A stretch of 63,990 nucleotides of DNA, the filler included, from Ferroacidibacillus organovorans (lineage in GTDB: Bacteria > Bacillota > Bacilli > Alicyclobacillales > SLC66): NCBI RefSeq assembly GCF_001642725.1. It is 5 parts of 5 records of this genome, joined end to end, with 100 filler letters (N's around TTAATTAATTAA, not from the genome) between each part and the next. Parts side by side here need not be neighbours in the genome. Positions count along the whole stretch, not along the records: positions 15,467 to 29,539 come from NZ_LSUQ01000064.1; 4 more parts are not named here. One strand, written 5' to 3'. This document shows positions 18,001 to 24,000 of this stretch, piece after piece. Within the stretch, counting starts at the first letter, position 1. Each line of letters starts with the position of its first letter. A program made the position numbers.

Positions 18001-21000
18001 CGCGCATCGCGAAGGCGACCGGATTGTCTAACGGGCAGCTTCAGAACATGATCACGGAGAATGAAACGGGACGACTGTTTGGCATTTGGGGTGTTTCAAT
18101 GGTCAATGTCATGCAACTCAACGAGATGATCCTGCAGTTTCAAGGAAAACAGGTTGTGAACGTCGGATGAAAACCCCTGACGGAGCGCGCGATGATGAGC
18201 TGAAATGCGCAGAAACGGGCGCGCTGAAACTGTTCATCGGTTCCGCGCCAGGTGTGGGCAAGACGTATACGATGTTGCGCGCGGCGAATGATCTGCGCGC
18301 CCGCGGGCTCGACGTGGTCATTGGACTGATGGACCATCACGGTCGTCCTGAAACGGAGATGCAGGTTGGTTCGCTTGAAATCATTGCCCCTCTAACGCTC
18401 CACGTCAAAGGGCGGACATTTGAAGAGGTGAATTTACAGGCGATTTGCGCGCGCAATCCAGACATTGTCGTGATTGATGAACTGGCGCACACAAACGCCC
18501 CTGGTTCCCAGTTTCCTAAACGCTACATGGATGTGGAGTATCTGCTCGATCACGGGATCTCCGTCCTGAGTGCGGTGAATGTGCAGCACATTGAAGGCAT
18601 CCACGAAGAGGCGGAAGTGGTGACAGGCATCTCTGTGAAGGAACTGATCCCGGCCGCCTTTTTGCGCAAGGCGCGCGAGGTTGAAGTGATCGACGTGACG
18701 CCAGAGACGCTGCGCCAGCGCCTGCTTGACGGGAGTATCTATCCGCGCGACAAAGTCAATCACGCGCTGCAAAACTTTTTTCAGAAGTCGAACCTGTCGG
18801 GTCTACGCGAACTCGCGCTCCGAGTAGTCGCAGAGGATGTGGAAGAGCGACTGCAAAACGCGTACGGACGCAATAAAATTCCTGGACCTGTCGGAGCGAA
18901 AGAGACGATCATGGTGTGCGTGAATTATCTCGTGCGCGCACAGCCGTTGATCTCGCGCGGTTATCGCATGGCAAAACGTCTGAAGGCGGACCTCTACGTT
19001 TTGTGCGTCAGCGATGTGGCGGAGGATCTGATCTCCGAGAAAGAGCGGGAGCGCATACGCCGCTTGAATCATCTGGCGATGGAGTATGACGCGGAGTGGA
19101 TTCTTGAGCCGCGCAATGATCGCAAAGTGGGCGAGGTGATCATGAGCGTTGCTGAGCGAATGAACGTGACGCAGATTGTCTTTGGCCAGACGTCCAAGAA
19201 TAGGCGATGGCGCTTGGGGGTCGACGCGAGCCCTGTGCGCCACCTGATGCGCTCGATGCGCTATGTCGATCTGCGGATCATGGGGTGGGACAGCGAGGTT
19301 TCGACACCTCACGATCACGCGCACGGAGATGAACCTGGCAGCGGCTCTCACCCGCTGCGTGACGCGTCGGCGTGGGCAAAGGATGGGCGTCGCGGCAAGC
19401 TCACGATCTACATCGGGGCGGCGCCGGGGGTCGGCAAGACGTACAAGATGCTGCAGGACGCGCGCGATTGGCGGAAAAAAGGCGTCGACGTCGTTGTTGG
19501 CTTGATCGAGACGCACGGACGCGAAGAGACGATCGCGCAGTTTACGGGCCTTGAAGTGCTGCCGAAAAGAGAAGTCGCCATCGGGATTCCGCTCTATGAC
19601 GAACTCGATGTCGAAGGGATCTTGCGCCGCAAGCCGCAGGTCGTTTTGATTGATGAATTGGCACACACAAACGCGCCGGGGAGCATGCACGAAAAGCGCT
19701 ATCAGGACATTCTCCTGCTCTTGGAGCGCGGAATCGACGTGGTGACGGCAGTCAACGTCCAGCATCTGGAGAGCCTACACGACAAGGTGGAGCACATCAC
19801 GGGTGTACGCGTGCGCGAGCGGGTTCCGGACTGGTTCATGAAGGTGGCGTCTGAGGTGAAGCTGATCGACGTGACACCGGAGACGCTCCAACAGCGCTTG
19901 CTCGACGGAAAGATCTACAGCCAGGACAAAATCGAGCGCGCCTTGAGCCACTTTTTTCAGATCGCCAATCTCTCGGCGCTGCGCGAAATCGCGTTGCTGG
20001 AAGTCGCAGACGACGTAGATCAGCGCATGGAAAAGGTGCGCGAAGACGAGGCACCAAAGCCGCGCGAGCGCATTCTTGTGTGTGTCAACCACCGTCCCCA
20101 CTCGGAAAAGCTGATTCGCCGCGGCTGGCGCATCGCCGATCGACTCAACGCAGAGCTTTGGGTGCTTGTCGTCATTGTCGATGAGAAGCTCTCCGAGCAG
20201 GAAGAGCACGACCTTTTGCGCATCCGCAAACTGAGTGAGCAGTTTGACGCCCAGTTTATCACGCGCCCTGTCGCGAACCACAGCGTCGGCTGTACGATTG
20301 TCGATGTCTCGAAGGAGCTCCAGGCCAAGCAGTTGGTGACGGGGCAACCGATCCTCGCGCGCGGACCGCTGCAGTTCTTGCGCAAGACGCCGATCGACTA
20401 TGTGCTTGAAAACGGGGACTTTGTCGATCTGCACATCGTCGGCATCGCGCGCGACTCTTAGTCGTGAGCCGCGCGCTCCTCAATTTCGCAGCAGATGAGC
20501 CCAAAATAGGTGGGAGCCTCGTAGGAGAGGAACCGTACGCGCCGCACATCCCGCGGAATAGCGCCGGCGAGAATCAGGGATTGCCAGATGCCGTCAGGTT
20601 TGGCTTCCTCGATAAAGTCGGGGGAAAAGTCGCCGAGCGCCTCGATCTCCCCCGCTTTTAAAAGCTGTACAACGCGTTCGTCAAGCTTGGCGGCGGACGG
20701 ATGGTACCCGTAGGGGCCGTTCGCCTCGTGCGCGTGCGCCCAGTCACAACTCGCGATGAGGCCAACGCGCTTGCCGGACTTCGCGACGGCGCGCGCGAGG
20801 GACTCGCCAAAGCGCAGGTGGTCTGCCATGCTGACGAGCCGCGACGGCGTGATCACCACCACAGGCACATCCGGCATGAACGTGAGGGGAATCTGCGCGC
20901 CCCAATCGAGTGCAAGGCACGCGAGAGGGCCGTCGCTCGTGGCGTATTGCAGCGCGCCCACCGCGAGGTGATCGTCGGTCGCCGCTTTGACGATGGCGCG

Positions 21001-24000
21001 CGCGAGTTCGCGGTCGACGGTGCGCGATGTCGCTTGCTGTCGCCCCGCAAATTCGAGAATTCCGCTCATGCGCGCGCTGCAGGCGACGGCAAACTGCCCG
21101 TCGATGCGCGTGCCGTGCGGCGTGAGCACGATGATCGTGTCGGGCTTTGCGGCCGCCATACCTAAGCCTAGCGTCTGCATGCTTTGGCGCGTTTTTTCCA
21201 TCAGCGCCGGGTTGTCCGGGGACAGATCCTCCAGGATCTCGTAGCCGTGCGGCGTGATCGCAGAAAAGACGAAGGTTGGCATTGTGCGCGTACCCCTTTC
21301 GAATTTGTGATTGTGTGCGGCTCGGACTGCATCTTCTAGGGCGCGGTGTGCGGCTCGACGGTCGTGAGCTTTTCGTAGAAATCGAGGTATTTATCCTTGT
21401 CGGCACTCGCCCGCAAGGCCATCGCAGTGCGCGGATGCTCGTCGAGCATGCCTGTGATCGCGTACGGGATGGTGTATCCCCATTCTACCTTTTCGCGCAT
21501 AGGAATGAACAGCTTTTCCAGTGGCTCAAGGAGCGGGCGCACATCATAGCGCGTGCCGTGAAGTTGGCTCACGAGGAGTTCAGTCGGGCAGTTTCCGGCG
21601 GCGCGCCCCATGCCAAAGACGGATGCATCGAGGAATGCCACACCCTGCTCGATCGCCGTCAGGGTATTAGCAAACGCCATCTGCATGTTGTTGTGCGTGT
21701 GAATGCCGAGCGCCTTTTTCGGTGCGAACTTCTGAAACTTTGCGACAAGGTACTCGATATCCCGTTGGAGGAGGCTGCCAAAGGAATCGACCACGTACAC
21801 CACGTCGACCGGGCTTTCGTTTAAAACTTCGAGCGCCTCGTTGAGGTCATTCTCTTTGGCGTGCGACACCGCCATGATGTTGAGCGTGGTCTCGTAGCCG
21901 AGGGCGTGAAACTTGCTCGCAAGGTCGATGCCCTTATCCACATCCTTCAGGTAGCATGCCACGCGGATCAAATCGAGATAGCTCTCGCTGCGGTGCACGA
22001 TGTCCCGCTCGTCCACGCGCCCGATGTCGACGAGGGCGGAGAGTTTGGTGTGCGTTTTCTCGCCGATCGTCTCGCGGATCAGATCCTCCGTCAGGTACGC
22101 CCACGGCCCGGCGTTTGGAAGATGGTGCAGTTTGGGTGAGTTTTTGTAGCCGAGTTCCATGTAATCGACGCCGGACAGGCTCAGCGCCTGATAAAGCGTG
22201 CGGACGAACGCCTGCGAAAAATCCCAATTGTTCACAAGCCCGCCGTCGCGGATGGTGCAATCGAGCACCTTTACATCTCGTTGTTTGATCGACATGATTA
22301 TTCCCCCTGTTTCGTTGCGTCGCGTTACGTGCATTTGCTCGCATGAGAGCTAGAGCGCGGATTCATCAGACTCGCGCGCGCCAGTTCTCGCATGCGCTGA
22401 TCGCCGCCTGCTGCCACAGAATGCAAAAAGGCCGCGTCTCCCCCAGGGACGAGACACAGCCTCGCGGTACCACCCTGGAAGAGGGCGCGACCCTCCACCT
22501 TCCTTGTCATAACGGCGGCGCGATTGCGCGACCGACCTGGACTACTTCACGTTTCGCCCAGATAGCTCCGAAGTGTACTTCACGCGCAGTCATCGACCGG
22601 TTCGCATCACCCACCGGTTTTCTGAGCGATCGCCTGCGGCTACTCTCTCCATCTTCGCTGTTCGTGGTGTAAAATTGGGAGCATCGTAGCACATTCGATC
22701 TTGACCCGTCAATGGTGGAGTGAGGGAGATTTTTACGTGAATTGGCACGGATAATATCCATGATTTATAGGATTGCGTTTTCATCATGATTTCAGAGAAA
22801 TCTGTCAAATATCGATTTGTAGCCACAAAAGGCGATTCGCAAGACCATTTTGTTAATGACTTAAGATCAAAGTTATTCCTAGCCTATGTACGCGGGTGCA
22901 AGGAACGGATGGAATTTTTGAAACTTCCGCGAATATGGGCATTCGCATCACATAAATCATCTTGAATGCATTATCGTTTCAAATCCAATTGGATGGTTTC
23001 AGATTGTTGTTCCCATTTTACCTTAACTTTGACAGGCAGGTATTCCTTAAAACCTTCGAGCATCATATGGGTATAACCACCACTACCACTGATTGCATCA
23101 AGGCAGATGGGCACCCTTATCGATGTTTGATAGTTTTTACTCCATGAGAACCCTAATGAGTGATACTCATACTCTACAATCTTGATATGAGGAACTGTCA
23201 AACCGATGTAAACCAAATGCATCCATTGTTCAATTTCTATAAATGATTTGTTCTGCGATGATTTCCCTTTCAGCGTATATTCAACTTCCCAGTTGTGACT
23301 AGATCCACGATAGATAAGGCCGCGTTCCATTTTTTCGACGAGTTCGATAAGGTGAGGCGTTAGTTCATTATCGGACGACATATGCATCTACTCCCTAATT
23401 TAGTATTTTATGGTGAATATCCACTCGACGCGATCAAAATGGAGTGGAATTTTTCTATTTGTTGTTGATACGAATGGTATTGGCCATTGTTCCATTAATG
23501 ACAAAAATGCAGTGTGTTTATTATCAGCGAGGAGTAGCTTGGGGATAAACGTGAATTCCGCATATCCGTGAGAATTCATTTCAATTTGGCATACTTTGCT
23601 TGGATTTCCCTGTGTTGTATTGCAATAATTTTGGGGTAAGTTAGGTTTAGGATATCCTAACTTAAATTTGCCCGCAGTTCACCCTACCAGTGATTGTCGA
23701 TTTTTGCGACGCAACAGAACGACACCTAGCCACTTGCCCATAGTAACGGAGCTAGACTCTCCGGCATCCATCGCACTTCTTCCTTCATTTCTTCCAATGG
23801 CGGCATCATGAAGACCTCATCTTGCGCTTGGGGTAGCCGAGACAAGGTGTAAAGCGCAGCGTCCCTTGCAGGATACGGTACACTTTTTACTCGTTCAAAT
23901 GCTCACAAAGTGGCTCAAAACGAATTTAGCAAATATAATACTGGTTGATCCAGACGGAGCCCTGTTGAACACGTTGCGCTTGGGTCCCGTCTGGTCGAAC

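Follow-up and report, generated by a model that had tools for sequence, protein, structure and literature searches.

In E. coli the DAHP synthase isozymes AroF, AroG and AroH each answer to a single aromatic amino acid. Their product, DAHP, belongs to the 4-hydroxy-2-oxo acids, which are what DmpG-type aldolase chemistry yields. According to the available part of one report, a laboratory-evolved KDPGal aldolase (DgoA) replaces DAHP synthase in E. coli and pyruvate and erythrose-4-phosphate can thus supply DAHP in vivo, although DgoA is a class I (Schiff-base) aldolase and was engineered, not natural; of 108 proteomes without DAHP synthase, only 14 could be accounted for by KDPGal aldolase (PMC3018139). 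Tyr T-box leaders have been described for B. subtilis tyrS and, in the B. cereus group, for a tyrosine/shikimate operon, phenylalanine-4-hydroxylase and NhaC-type transporters, which sets a precedent for such leaders before shikimate and tyrosine biosynthesis genes (PMC2494555, available part of the text).

We analysed a window of 63,990 nucleotides from Ferroacidibacillus organovorans, in which a leader of the same RNA family, with the same UAC specifier logic and judging by its parts the same mechanism, precedes an aldolase gene. It differs from the known Tyr T-boxes in two respects: its target is an HMGL-like aldolase, which is absent from the available part of PMC2494555, and tyrS of this organism is not under T-box control. 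The features of the locus are as follows.

22683..22712, minus strand: promoter-like site (TTGACG, 18-nt spacer, TG-extended TACGAT), from a consensus scan only
22442..22664, minus strand: T-box leader RNA comprising Stem I with the specifier loop, Stem III and the antiterminator (full RF00230 model; kept in all 9 orthologous loci)
22575..22577, minus strand: specifier codon UAC (Tyr) in the context GUGAA-G-UAC-A
22463..22476, minus strand: T-box core AGGGUGGUACCGCG, whose bulge UGGU can base-pair with A73-CCA at the 3' end of tRNA-Tyr(GUA)
22425..22465, minus strand: predicted intrinsic terminator, a GC-rich hairpin followed by UUUUU
21336..22295, minus strand: orphan HMGL-like (DRE-TIM, DmpG-related) metal aldolase, 319 aa (Pfam HMGL-like 7e-25), proposed to form DAHP
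20458..21282, minus strand: LigB / TK2203-like class III extradiol-dioxygenase-fold protein, 274 aa (Pfam LigB 7.8e-28)

The leader (G000:C64:6976-7198(-) in contig coordinates) matched RF00230 with 99.9 bits (E 7.8e-21) across model positions 1-219 of 219; the Rfam gathering score is 93 bits. The promoter-like site ends ∼19 nt 5' of the leader start, and the consensus scan returned 2 sites compared to 0.9 expected in shuffles. The register of the specifier was calibrated on other T-box leaders of the same genome: the loop reads GUGAA-G-UUC-A for pheST (PheS identity confirmed by tblastn), GAA-A-CUC-A for leuS, GAA-G-GAC-A for hisS-aspS and GAA-C-GUC-G for valS. The antiterminator is predicted to fold at −17 kcal/mol, leaving the 7 nt UGGUACC as a bulge. 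The tRNA-Tyr genes carry the anticodon GTA and both copies that are legible to the 3' end terminate in ACCA. For the terminator we computed −26.3 kcal/mol (z −4.2), and none of 200 shuffles folded equally well. Terminator and antiterminator are mutually exclusive because the strand GCGAGGCUGUGUCUCGUCCCUGG is common to both.

An orthologue of the aldolase occurs in 9 of the 64 genomes of the order (6 genera, 67-100% identity) and Rfam detected a T-box upstream of it at all 8 other loci, with 85.5-116.7 bits. All nine leaders keep the UAC, whereas their stems differ and so does the base before it, which is G except in G058 and G056, where it is A; the purine after UAC is invariant in 9/9. The initial annotation had claimed a T-box upstream of the operon, a Tyr specifier and this distribution, and the full-length match, the calibrated register and the nine leaders bear it out on each. 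The conserved unit is the T-box plus the aldolase, and the comparison of leaders supports a Tyr-specific T-box. It could be objected that the leader is not Tyr-specific or no longer functional and that the tyrosine link is an artefact of reading the specifier. The alaS leader reads GAA-GCU-C without a spacer base, so that GUA (Val) is a formal alternative, and the discriminator A73 is common to Tyr, Phe and Val tRNAs. However, the A before UAC in G058 and G056 would turn GUA into AUA while UAC itself is invariant, which excludes a GUA specifier; the leader also lies above the gathering score over the full model and its terminator is strong. We give this objection almost no credence.

The gene tyrS (G000:C16:693-1958(-)) lies ∼70 nt from a divergent ORF, and an Rfam scan of this gap gave no match at E<=1, in agreement with the earlier statement that tyrS lacks a T-box. 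Among the targets of the 12 T-boxes that Rfam found in this genome the aldolase is the only one behind a Tyr leader, as its description as a new member of the Tyr regulon would have it. Other T-boxes precede the non-synthetase genes serA, a citramalate/isopropylmalate-synthase-like gene (AUC) and cysE-cysS (UGC). The non-synthetase targets are first committed enzymes, a pattern that we counted in favour of the aldolase being an entry enzyme as well.

The second gene is probably co-transcribed with the aldolase, with a 53-nt gap and no terminator seen between them. Its product aligns with TK2203 of Thermococcus kodakarensis (5hee) over 241 residues (2.3e-38) and conserves the histidine motifs PH(G/N) and H-A-H; TK2203-like proteins have no established function. 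By tblastn the LigB-like gene is downstream of the aldolase in only 2 of the 9 T-box loci (G000, G046), whereas 44 of the 64 genomes of the order have a homologue, most of them lacking the aldolase, and its G+C is 0.64 compared to 0.57 for the aldolase gene. The two-gene operon that had been proposed is confined to this genus, and the proposal that the LigB-like protein is a functional partner has to be given up. On its distribution and composition the gene appears to be a genus-specific passenger of the T-box operon.

For the aldolase itself the most likely start is the ATG at 22295 with a GGGGGAA ribosome-binding site, for which a start at 22334 was set aside. The closest solved relative is 3dxi (1.4e-44, residues 8-283), followed by 4-hydroxy-2-oxovalerate aldolases (3.7e-22 to 2.3e-14). 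The protein stays below every NCBIfam cut-off, with 119 bits for the DmpG equivalog compared to 286 required. The structural matches of both proteins and the orphan status of the aldolase, all listed in the initial annotation, were reproduced. With DmpG/BphI/HsaF (1nvm, 4lrs, 4jn6, 8ih7) it shares the fold, the Asp/His/His metal site and the pyruvate-enolate Arg: R16-D17, H199 and H201 are invariant and these Arg-Asp and His-x-His residues bind pyruvate and metal in DmpG-type aldolases. It differs in being only 26-29% identical, in forming a separate clade on a long branch of the tree and in having no DmpG_comm domain or DmpF partner gene that we could find. Furthermore, RDGSH of DmpG/BphI is replaced by RDGGL, with Leu in place of the catalytic His; the base for any aldol chemistry would then not be the DmpG-type His, which we counted against DAHP formation. 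The aldolase belongs to a large and highly conserved family that is separate from DmpG.

One explanation of these data is a catabolic aldolase which cleaves a 4-hydroxy-2-oxo acid, for example one that arises when the LigB-like dioxygenase opens an aromatic ring by meta-cleavage or one that derives from an imported sugar acid, and whose Tyr T-box was merely co-opted or serves salvage. The closest characterised relatives are indeed the catabolic DmpG/BphI aldolases and a LigB-fold gene directly follows here. In genus g438 a homologue is found with a TRAP transporter, an OYE-type reductase and a LysR regulator, a context that looks catabolic, and in L218 a homologue precedes a KDPG-type aldolase. 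This explanation conflicts, however, with the absence of LigB from 7 of the 9 T-box loci and its distribution independent of the aldolase, as well as with the missing DmpF partner, communication domain and catalytic His and the low equivalog score. The family is also present in 33/33 genomes of one Bacilli family at 65-70% identity, which looks like housekeeping, homologues belong to a trp biosynthetic operon (see below) and a degradative enzyme induced by uncharged tRNA-Tyr would make no regulatory sense. We consider a catabolic role improbable.

The genomic contexts of the homologues point to the aromatic pathway in several separate clades of the family tree (Tyr T-box, trp operon, aroA and aroB contexts). 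A 40%-identical homologue (BLASTP 9e-75) is part of the operon T-box(UGG)-trpEG-aldolase-trpB-trpA-trpD-trpC-trpF, in which stop and start codons overlap. Of 8 carriers in another order of Bacillota, 6, from 2 genera, have this arrangement under a Trp T-box. In the family that contains Ammoniphilus the aldolase is adjacent to aroA: the orthologue lies directly upstream of aroA (CM-DAHP synthase)-ccpA in G261 (L035/L163) and G271, and in G206 a TnpB-like insertion separates it from aroA. The gene aroB is immediately upstream of aldolase relatives in L228 and L239 and, with a 24-nt gap, in L241, where an aroD-aroE fusion diverges from the pair; close relatives with 83-96% identity to the L241 aldolase come from sources that name them Planctomycetota. 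In L272 chorismate synthase lies 250 nt upstream. Most contexts give no such hint, which counts against the link: in the named Bacilli loci the aldolase was monocistronic between unrelated genes in ∼79 of 80 cases, and in the metagenome loci an aromatic gene was immediately adjacent in only 4 of 80, three of these four being one clade.

A different context was encountered at the base of the tree. In G530 a fused form of 581 aa, the most divergent branch, lies between an epimerase/dehydratase and a CTP_transf_3 (CMP-ulosonic-acid-type) cytidylyltransferase, which fits a family that makes 3-deoxy-2-ulosonic acids and was counted in favour of DAHP formation. The aldolase could also serve a cell-envelope glycan, as in the distant 3DXI/G530 branch, with Tyr control being incidental. 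A cytidylyltransferase ∼3 kb away in L253 and a GDP-mannose-dehydratase-like neighbour in L221 agree with this. The orphan structural-genomics entry 3dxi ('putative aldolase') has no assigned function and shares the motifs RDGG, GYxN, VDSFG, HxHxN and GMGRxAGN with our aldolase; it is presumably the N-terminal domain of a longer Bacteroides protein and probably belongs to this fused branch, outside the Bacilli clade. On the other hand, no cytidylyltransferase or glycan gene lies beside the aldolase in 16 annotated Bacilli loci or in the Tyr-T-box loci, and the fused form is basal and most divergent. T-boxes are not known for glycan genes, their targets in the available part of PMC2494555 being synthetases, biosynthesis genes and transporters. 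A glycan role therefore seems very improbable.

We then compared the carriers with respect to DAHP synthase. The 100% complete genome G239 has neither PF00793 nor PF01474 and keeps aroB, aroE, chorismate synthase, aroH and tyrA; at its syntenic site ccpA directly follows the aldolase and aroA is cleanly absent, with no Ns. In G950, the genome of the Seinonella locus L097, neither DAHP-synthase family was found while chorismate synthase and aroB are kept. A third such carrier, G909, is a MAG, and its sister genome does possess the enzyme. The canonical enzyme was present in 46 of 47 carriers of the Bacilli sample, in 48 of 50 named-locus carrier genomes and in all 5 non-Bacilli carriers, and the genome studied here has both aroA and tyrA. 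As most carriers, this genome included, have a canonical DAHP synthase, the aldolase has no obligatory gap to fill. Non-carriers, too, can be devoid of DAHP synthase and keep the later enzyme: of the 4 without PF00793, 3 retain chorismate synthase. This counts against DAHP formation, as does the carrier G644, for which we obtained no chorismate synthase match.

An auxiliary function would explain this coexistence more easily than a duplicate. The aldolase might support aromatic supply without forming DAHP: by acting on another 2-keto-3-deoxy sugar acid, in cleavage or in synthesis, it could keep erythrose-4-phosphate and pyruvate in balance, or it could salvage dephosphorylated DAH or a similar by-product of the shikimate pathway. 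The Tyr/Trp T-box, aroA, aroB and aroC contexts apply to it equally. However, no other early shikimate step has pyruvate-aldolase chemistry, a release of erythrose-4-phosphate and pyruvate is the DAHP reaction in reverse, and the clean loss of aroA in G239 together with the DAHP-synthase-less G950 fits substitution better. We regard this alternative as rather unlikely.

We tentatively favour, with somewhat less than half of our confidence, the reading that the enzyme is a metal-dependent pyruvate aldolase which joins pyruvate to erythrose-4-phosphate to give DAHP and which uncharged tRNA-Tyr induces. From the anatomy of the leader we infer tRNA-dependent antitermination: uncharged tRNA-Tyr(GUA) would pair at both the UAC specifier and the UGGU bulge and stabilise the antiterminator, and RNA polymerase would read on into the aldolase operon as transcription attenuation is relieved. 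The aldolase family would feed the common aromatic (shikimate) pathway as a PEP-independent analogue of DAHP synthase, the condensation to DAHP being drawn forward by AroB; both the pathway link and the reaction are deduced from context. A pyruvate-based condensation is thermodynamically weaker than a PEP-based one, which counts against DAHP formation. In this organism the aldolase would be a Tyr-regulated second entry like E. coli AroF, beside the feedback-controlled CM-DAHP synthase AroA. As for AroF, AroG and AroH, the level of a separate pathway entry would follow one end product (Tyr, or Trp in the trp-operon homologues), whereas the fold is unrelated (an HMGL-like TIM barrel, not PF00793/PF01474), the presumed donor is pyruvate instead of PEP and control is by a tRNA-sensing RNA instead of TyrR and feedback inhibition. 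The idea of a DAHP-synthase analogue had already been raised. New are the trp-operon homologues, the aroA and aroB neighbours and the two genomes G239 and G950 without recognisable DAHP synthase, which lend it indirect comparative support. A full-text search of the available literature found no report of such a system. If the proposal is true, the aldolase would represent an unrecognised way to start aromatic amino acid synthesis, under the control of a tyrosine-sensing RNA.

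The locus lies on contig C64 of this genome (G000), which belongs to a close relative of Ferroacidibacillus organovorans, as the top match in nr is 99% identical and bears this name. Its elements, all read on the minus strand, are as follows:

from 22712, minus strand: promoter-like site TTGACG-18-TACGAT with an upstream TG, found by consensus scan
22664-22442, minus strand: T-box leader (RF00230), Rfam 99.9 bits
130 nt, minus strand: spacer between the T-box leader and the aldolase gene
22295-21336, minus strand: HMGL-like aldolase gene, likely start codon ATG at 22295, preceded by a GGGGGAA ribosome-binding site
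53 nt: gap between the aldolase gene and the LigB gene
21282-20458, minus strand: LigB-family gene

The end of this T-box operon abuts the convergent kdpD gene, the stop of which is at 20461. As several contigs (C62, C64 and others) are joined in the window at blocks of N (15367-15466, 29540-29639, 43631-43730 and 56974-57073), the neighbourhood is not readable across those points. In the kdpD reading frame (18086-20461, plus strand, 791 aa) the KdpD sensor domain and Usp are recognized, with two stretches matched by the KdpD model. Neither HisKA nor HATPase is among its reported domain matches, so that this KdpD may lack the kinase part or be rearranged. Just ahead of the T-box promoter there is an island of low G+C content (22700-24150; 0.37-0.46 compared to about 0.57-0.6 on both sides), which may be foreign DNA and holds a 138-aa reading frame (22971-23387, minus strand) with no match in Pfam or NCBIfam. 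Elsewhere in the window the group II intron catalytic domain (RF00029) was matched twice, at 1165-1235 on the plus strand (45.7 bits) and at 43520-43590 on the minus strand (48.6 bits). The two matches are near-identical in sequence, which points to a single intron present in the genome in two or more copies.

The initial annotation had read the leader as a T-box with the Tyr specifier UAC, and our analysis bears this out. The Rfam score exceeds the gathering score of 93 and the match spans all 219 positions of the model (1-219). In the specifier loop we read GUGAA-G-UAC-A, with the GA-motif present and the codon followed by a purine. To fix the register we calibrated the specifier on the 12 T-boxes of this genome: the pheST leader reads GUGAA-G-UUC-A (the identity of PheS was confirmed), leuS GAA-A-CUC-A, hisS-aspS GAA-G-GAC-A and valS GAA-C-GUC-G. 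The alaS leader has no spacer base, which makes GUA (Val) a formal alternative. UAC and the next A are kept in all nine orthologous leaders and the base before UAC varies; it is A in genomes G058 and G056, and this excludes the GUA reading. The Tyr reading also fits the tRNA: the T-box core is AGGGUGGUACCGCG, the antiterminator (-17 kcal/mol) carries a UGGUACC bulge, and its UGGU is complementary to the A73-CCA end of tRNA-Tyr, which has the anticodon GUA and the discriminator base A73. The terminator (-26.3 kcal/mol) is followed by UUUUU, and none of 200 shuffled sequences folded as well. Antiterminator and terminator share one strand and are thus mutually exclusive folds ahead of the aldolase gene. 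A recent origin of the leader as a copy of the pheST leader was rejected, as their identity of 0.56 is close to the mean of 0.545 over all leader pairs. Judged from sequence, we consider the predicted Tyr specificity of this T-box secure, with very little room for doubt.

It had also been claimed that tyrS itself has no T-box, and we came to the same result: the intergenic space of tyrS (C16:693-1958, minus strand) is about 70 nt and gave no Rfam match at E ≤ 1. This leaves the aldolase leader as the sole Tyr T-box detected in this genome. The other T-boxes on non-synthetase genes precede serA (C7:30153-30382, minus strand; the specifier looks like AGC), a citramalate/isopropylmalate-synthase-like gene (C1:62594-62812, plus strand; AUC, Ile), which is itself HMGL-like, and cysE-cysS (C6:25641-25860, plus strand; UGC, Cys). 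All three targets are first committed steps of their pathways, and a DAHP-making enzyme under a Tyr T-box would fit this pattern.

The combination of leader and aldolase is conserved. As initially annotated, nine of the order's 64 genomes, in 6 genera, carry the aldolase orthologue, and every copy stands behind a T-box; we found identities of 67-100%. At locus L023 (genome G042) the T-box-controlled aldolase is immediately followed by a second T-box (2609-2861, plus strand, 85.4 bits), in which the specifier region resembles GUC (Val); the contig stops short of the gene that this T-box would control. The proposed two-gene operon was only partly upheld: the two genes do adjoin here with a 53-nt gap, but among the nine T-box loci the LigB gene follows the aldolase only in G000 and G046, both of one genus, and nothing is conserved 3' of the aldolase in the other seven. 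LigB/TK2203-like homologues were found in 44 of the order's 64 genomes, most of which are free of the aldolase, and the G+C content of the LigB gene (0.64) is higher than that of the aldolase gene (0.57) and of the genome (0.52). Considering its presence at two of nine loci, its independent spread in the order and its higher G+C content, we regard the LigB gene as a passenger added in this genus; it is outside the conserved T-box-aldolase system. The gene itself matches Pfam PF02900 with 97.7 bits (cut-off 26.3) and the TK2203 structure 5hee at 2.3e-38, with which it shares conserved His motifs in the alignment. Against the HpaD model it scores 30.8 bits compared to a cut-off of 316.

We then considered which enzyme the aldolase might be. 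Its sole Pfam hit is HMGL-like (7e-25). It has in common with DmpG/BphI the HMGL-like TIM barrel, an Asp/His/His metal site and a pyruvate-binding Arg; R16, D17, H199 and H201 align with the metal and pyruvate residues of DmpG and are invariant in the family. Nevertheless, we rejected an identity with DmpG. The DmpG equivalog TIGR03217 was not reached (119.3 bits compared to 286), and every NCBIfam match is far below its cut-off. The DmpG motif RDGSH, in which the His after RDG is catalytic, is RDGGL in the aldolase family, where the Leu aligns with the His of the PDB entry 4lrs. By Pfam the aldolase lacks the DmpG communication domain and there is no adjacent DmpF gene. An aldehyde dehydrogenase was not found in the annotated aldolase loci either; the neighbours here are the LigB gene and kdpD. 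The best solved relative is the orphan structure 3dxi (1.4e-44), compared to only 1e-14 to 1e-22 for true DmpG-type aldolases. In a tree computed with MAFFT and FastTree and rooted with eight DmpG paralogues of the order, the aldolase family forms a separate clade on a long branch. By sequence the aldolase is also outside the DAHP synthase families (PF00793 for type I, PF01474 for type II), and the real type I DAHP synthase of this genome is at C87:5896-6948. The boldest form of the initial annotation had been an analogue of DAHP synthase; this claim is one of analogous function and not of shared family membership.

The aldolase is found well beyond the order. An orthologue (E ≤ 1e-90) is present in 47 of 401 sampled Bacilli genomes, including all 33 genomes of family f17, which holds Paenibacillus judging by the named loci, and wider sampling of the families f30 and f11 yielded no further genomes. 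The family is very strongly conserved: the aldolase of our acidophile is 65-70% identical to the Paenibacillus orthologues. Outside the Bacilli a homologue was detected in only 5 of about 385 Bacillota genomes. The family is abundant among proteins that their sources assign to Planctomycetota and occurs in some Clostridia-type lineages. Overall it comprises at least several thousand proteins, which are currently labelled '4-hydroxy-2-oxovalerate aldolase' or even 'H-NS'; for this family both labels are mis-annotations.

Most orthologues outside the order have no T-box, as the initial annotation had conceded. The T-box core motif is absent in 79 of 80 named loci, and the single match (L034) is a MAG of our genome's own order; 11 further Bacilli loci showed none by Rfam at the gathering score or by motif search. 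Regular-expression matches in the metagenome loci L238, L242, L243, L247, L274, L275 and L287 were taken as false. An Rfam scan of L238, L242, L247, L274 and L287 detected no T-box, and the sole Rfam match was a T-box 4.7 kb off in L289. In Paenibacillus-type loci the aldolase gene stands alone, with a conserved promoter, unrelated flanking genes and no T-box. Other upstream elements were observed at some of these loci. Tandem CTTAAAAG-like repeats (e.g. GCTTAAAAGCTTAAAAGCC) occur in the 5' region of the aldolase gene, some 40-110 nt before its start, at L059, L068, L079, L080, L084, L091, L097 and L050, i.e. at a subset of the Paenibacillus-type, Seinonella and Ammoniphilus loci; they could be a regulator binding site. 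Most other Paenibacillus loci show a conserved CTTTAC...TTCAAGTATGATG promoter in their place. At L160 (G291) a c-di-GMP-I riboswitch (4650-4737, plus strand, 84.7 bits) precedes the aldolase orthologue by about 1.3 kb in the same orientation.

The gene contexts of other members suggest a link of the family to the shikimate pathway. In another Bacillota order we found a homologue (40% identity, BLASTP 9e-75, all family motifs) inside the trp operon, with the order T-box-trpEG-aldolase-trpB-trpA-trpD-trpC-trpF and overlapping stop and start codons. Their leaders were matched at 113.8 and 126.5 bits and carry GAA-UGG-C, i.e. the Trp codon. This arrangement is present in six of the eight carriers of that order, across two genera. 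The routes to Tyr and Trp coincide only in the common pathway as far as chorismate. A neighbouring aroA was found in family f30, to which the named Ammoniphilus locus L035 belongs: in G261 and G271 the aldolase immediately precedes aroA (CM-DAHP synthase)-ccpA. In G206 the two genes are separated by the insertion of a TnpB/Cas12f-like gene (L164 4620-5738). On three metagenome contigs that form one clade (L241, L228 and L239) aroB is immediately upstream of the aldolase; in L241 the two genes are 24 nt apart and run divergently to an aroD-aroE fusion. The product of aroA is DAHP, which aroB consumes. A DeoC/LacD-family class I aldolase (E about 1e-72) is encoded 2-3 kb from the aroB-aldolase pair (L241 7852-8646, L228 3335-4165); the ADH synthase of archaea, which belongs to the alternative entry into the shikimate pathway, is a member of this Pfam family. 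Identity among the closest relatives of the L241 protein is 83-96%, and those sources that give a name call them Planctomycetota. Finally, at L272 chorismate synthase precedes the aldolase by 250 nt on the same strand. The aromatic contexts (trp operon, aroA, aroB and chorismate synthase) fall in different clades of the tree. Among the metagenome loci an aromatic-pathway gene is immediately adjacent in only 4 of 80, three of the four from one clade, and as roughly one such neighbour per 80 loci is expected by chance, the metagenome adjacency is modest on its own.

Other members have different neighbours. In the genus g438 the homologue is found beside a TRAP transporter, an OYE-type reductase and a LysR regulator. 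The most basal member of the family is a 581-aa fused aldolase with a long C-terminal domain (L174 in G530, 6998-8743). Its gene is flanked by those of an epimerase/dehydratase and of a CTP_transf_3 cytidylyltransferase (CMP-KDO/CMP-NeuAc-type), with HAD and radical-SAM genes nearby, and this neighbourhood is a glycan or CMP-sugar cluster. The adjacent cytidylyltransferase suggests that the basal branch makes a 3-deoxy-2-ulosonic acid. The same kinship is seen among the PEP-dependent DAHP, KDO8P and NeuB synthases, and the Pfam NeuB model also matches the aroA proteins of the aldolase loci.

If the aldolase were a DAHP synthase, it might replace the canonical enzyme, and two genomes show such a gap. 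G239 (100% complete, of the same genus as G261) has neither PF00793 nor PF01474 and retains aroB, aroE, chorismate synthase, aroH and tyrA. Compared to G261, DNA synteny shows about 1.35 kb with aroA replaced by about 0.2 kb without any Ns, and in G239 the aldolase has its own terminator, followed by ccpA. G950, from which the named Seinonella locus L097 comes, likewise has neither DAHP synthase family and retains chorismate synthase and aroB as neighbouring genes. The same pattern in G909, a MAG of the order, was not counted, as its sister genome G057 has a DAHP synthase. Conversely, aldolase and canonical DAHP synthase were found together in 46 of 47, 48 of 50 and 5 of 5 carriers tested, the 50 being drawn from 79 named loci. 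With PF00793 in 396 of 401 Bacilli genomes and only one of 47 carriers without it, we rejected a systematic complementarity between the two enzymes. Of the non-carriers without PF00793, three of four still have chorismate synthase, so an otherwise intact genome without DAHP synthase is not specific to carriers; the carrier G644 gave no chorismate synthase match. In this lineage a displacement of tyrA or of DAHP synthase was rejected as well: PDH_N is present in all nine aldolase genomes, and this genome has both aroA and tyrA in addition to the aldolase. At best, the aldolase is usually an extra isozyme.

A functional tie of the aldolase family to the biosynthesis of aromatic amino acids is likely. 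The best single hypothesis for its reaction, drawn from the gene contexts only, is that it makes DAHP from pyruvate and erythrose-4-phosphate, which we propose tentatively, at slightly less than even confidence. It would do so independently of PEP; lineages would wire it to different end products, through a Tyr T-box here and a Trp T-box operon elsewhere, and it would stand in for the canonical DAHP synthase where this is missing (G239 and G950). The complete proposal, in which the HMGL-like family is a natural PEP-independent DAHP synthase and a non-homologous second start of the shikimate pathway, tied to Tyr or Trp depending on the lineage and substituting in those two genomes, is somewhat more speculative still. 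The shikimate pathway is regarded as starting with a PEP-dependent DAHP synthase or, in many archaea, with the unrelated ADH route. To our knowledge, a PEP-sparing route to aromatics has so far been obtained only via directed evolution. According to genome surveys, many prokaryotes have no DAHP synthase. Zucko et al. (2010, PMC3018139) report that it is missing from 108 proteomes, with replacements 'yet to be identified', and that KDPGal aldolase accounts for only 14 of the 108. Excerpts of Wels et al. (2008, PMC2494555) name tyrS, NhaC-type transporters, a tyrosine/shikimate operon of the B. cereus group and phenylalanine-4-hydroxylase as targets of Tyr T-boxes, and no aldolase is mentioned among the targets in these excerpts. 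In our full-text literature searches, outside subscription journals, we found no function for the family or for 3dxi, no link between a Tyr T-box and an aldolase, and no natural pyruvate-dependent DAHP enzyme; the only precedent mentioned is an engineered KDPGal aldolase.

If the proposal is true, an orphan family with at least several thousand members would receive a function, and both the Tyr and the Trp T-box regulons would gain a member. Some gaps in the shikimate pathway would be explained, and metabolic engineers would have a PEP-sparing route to aromatics. The shikimate pathway would then have a second, non-homologous entry.
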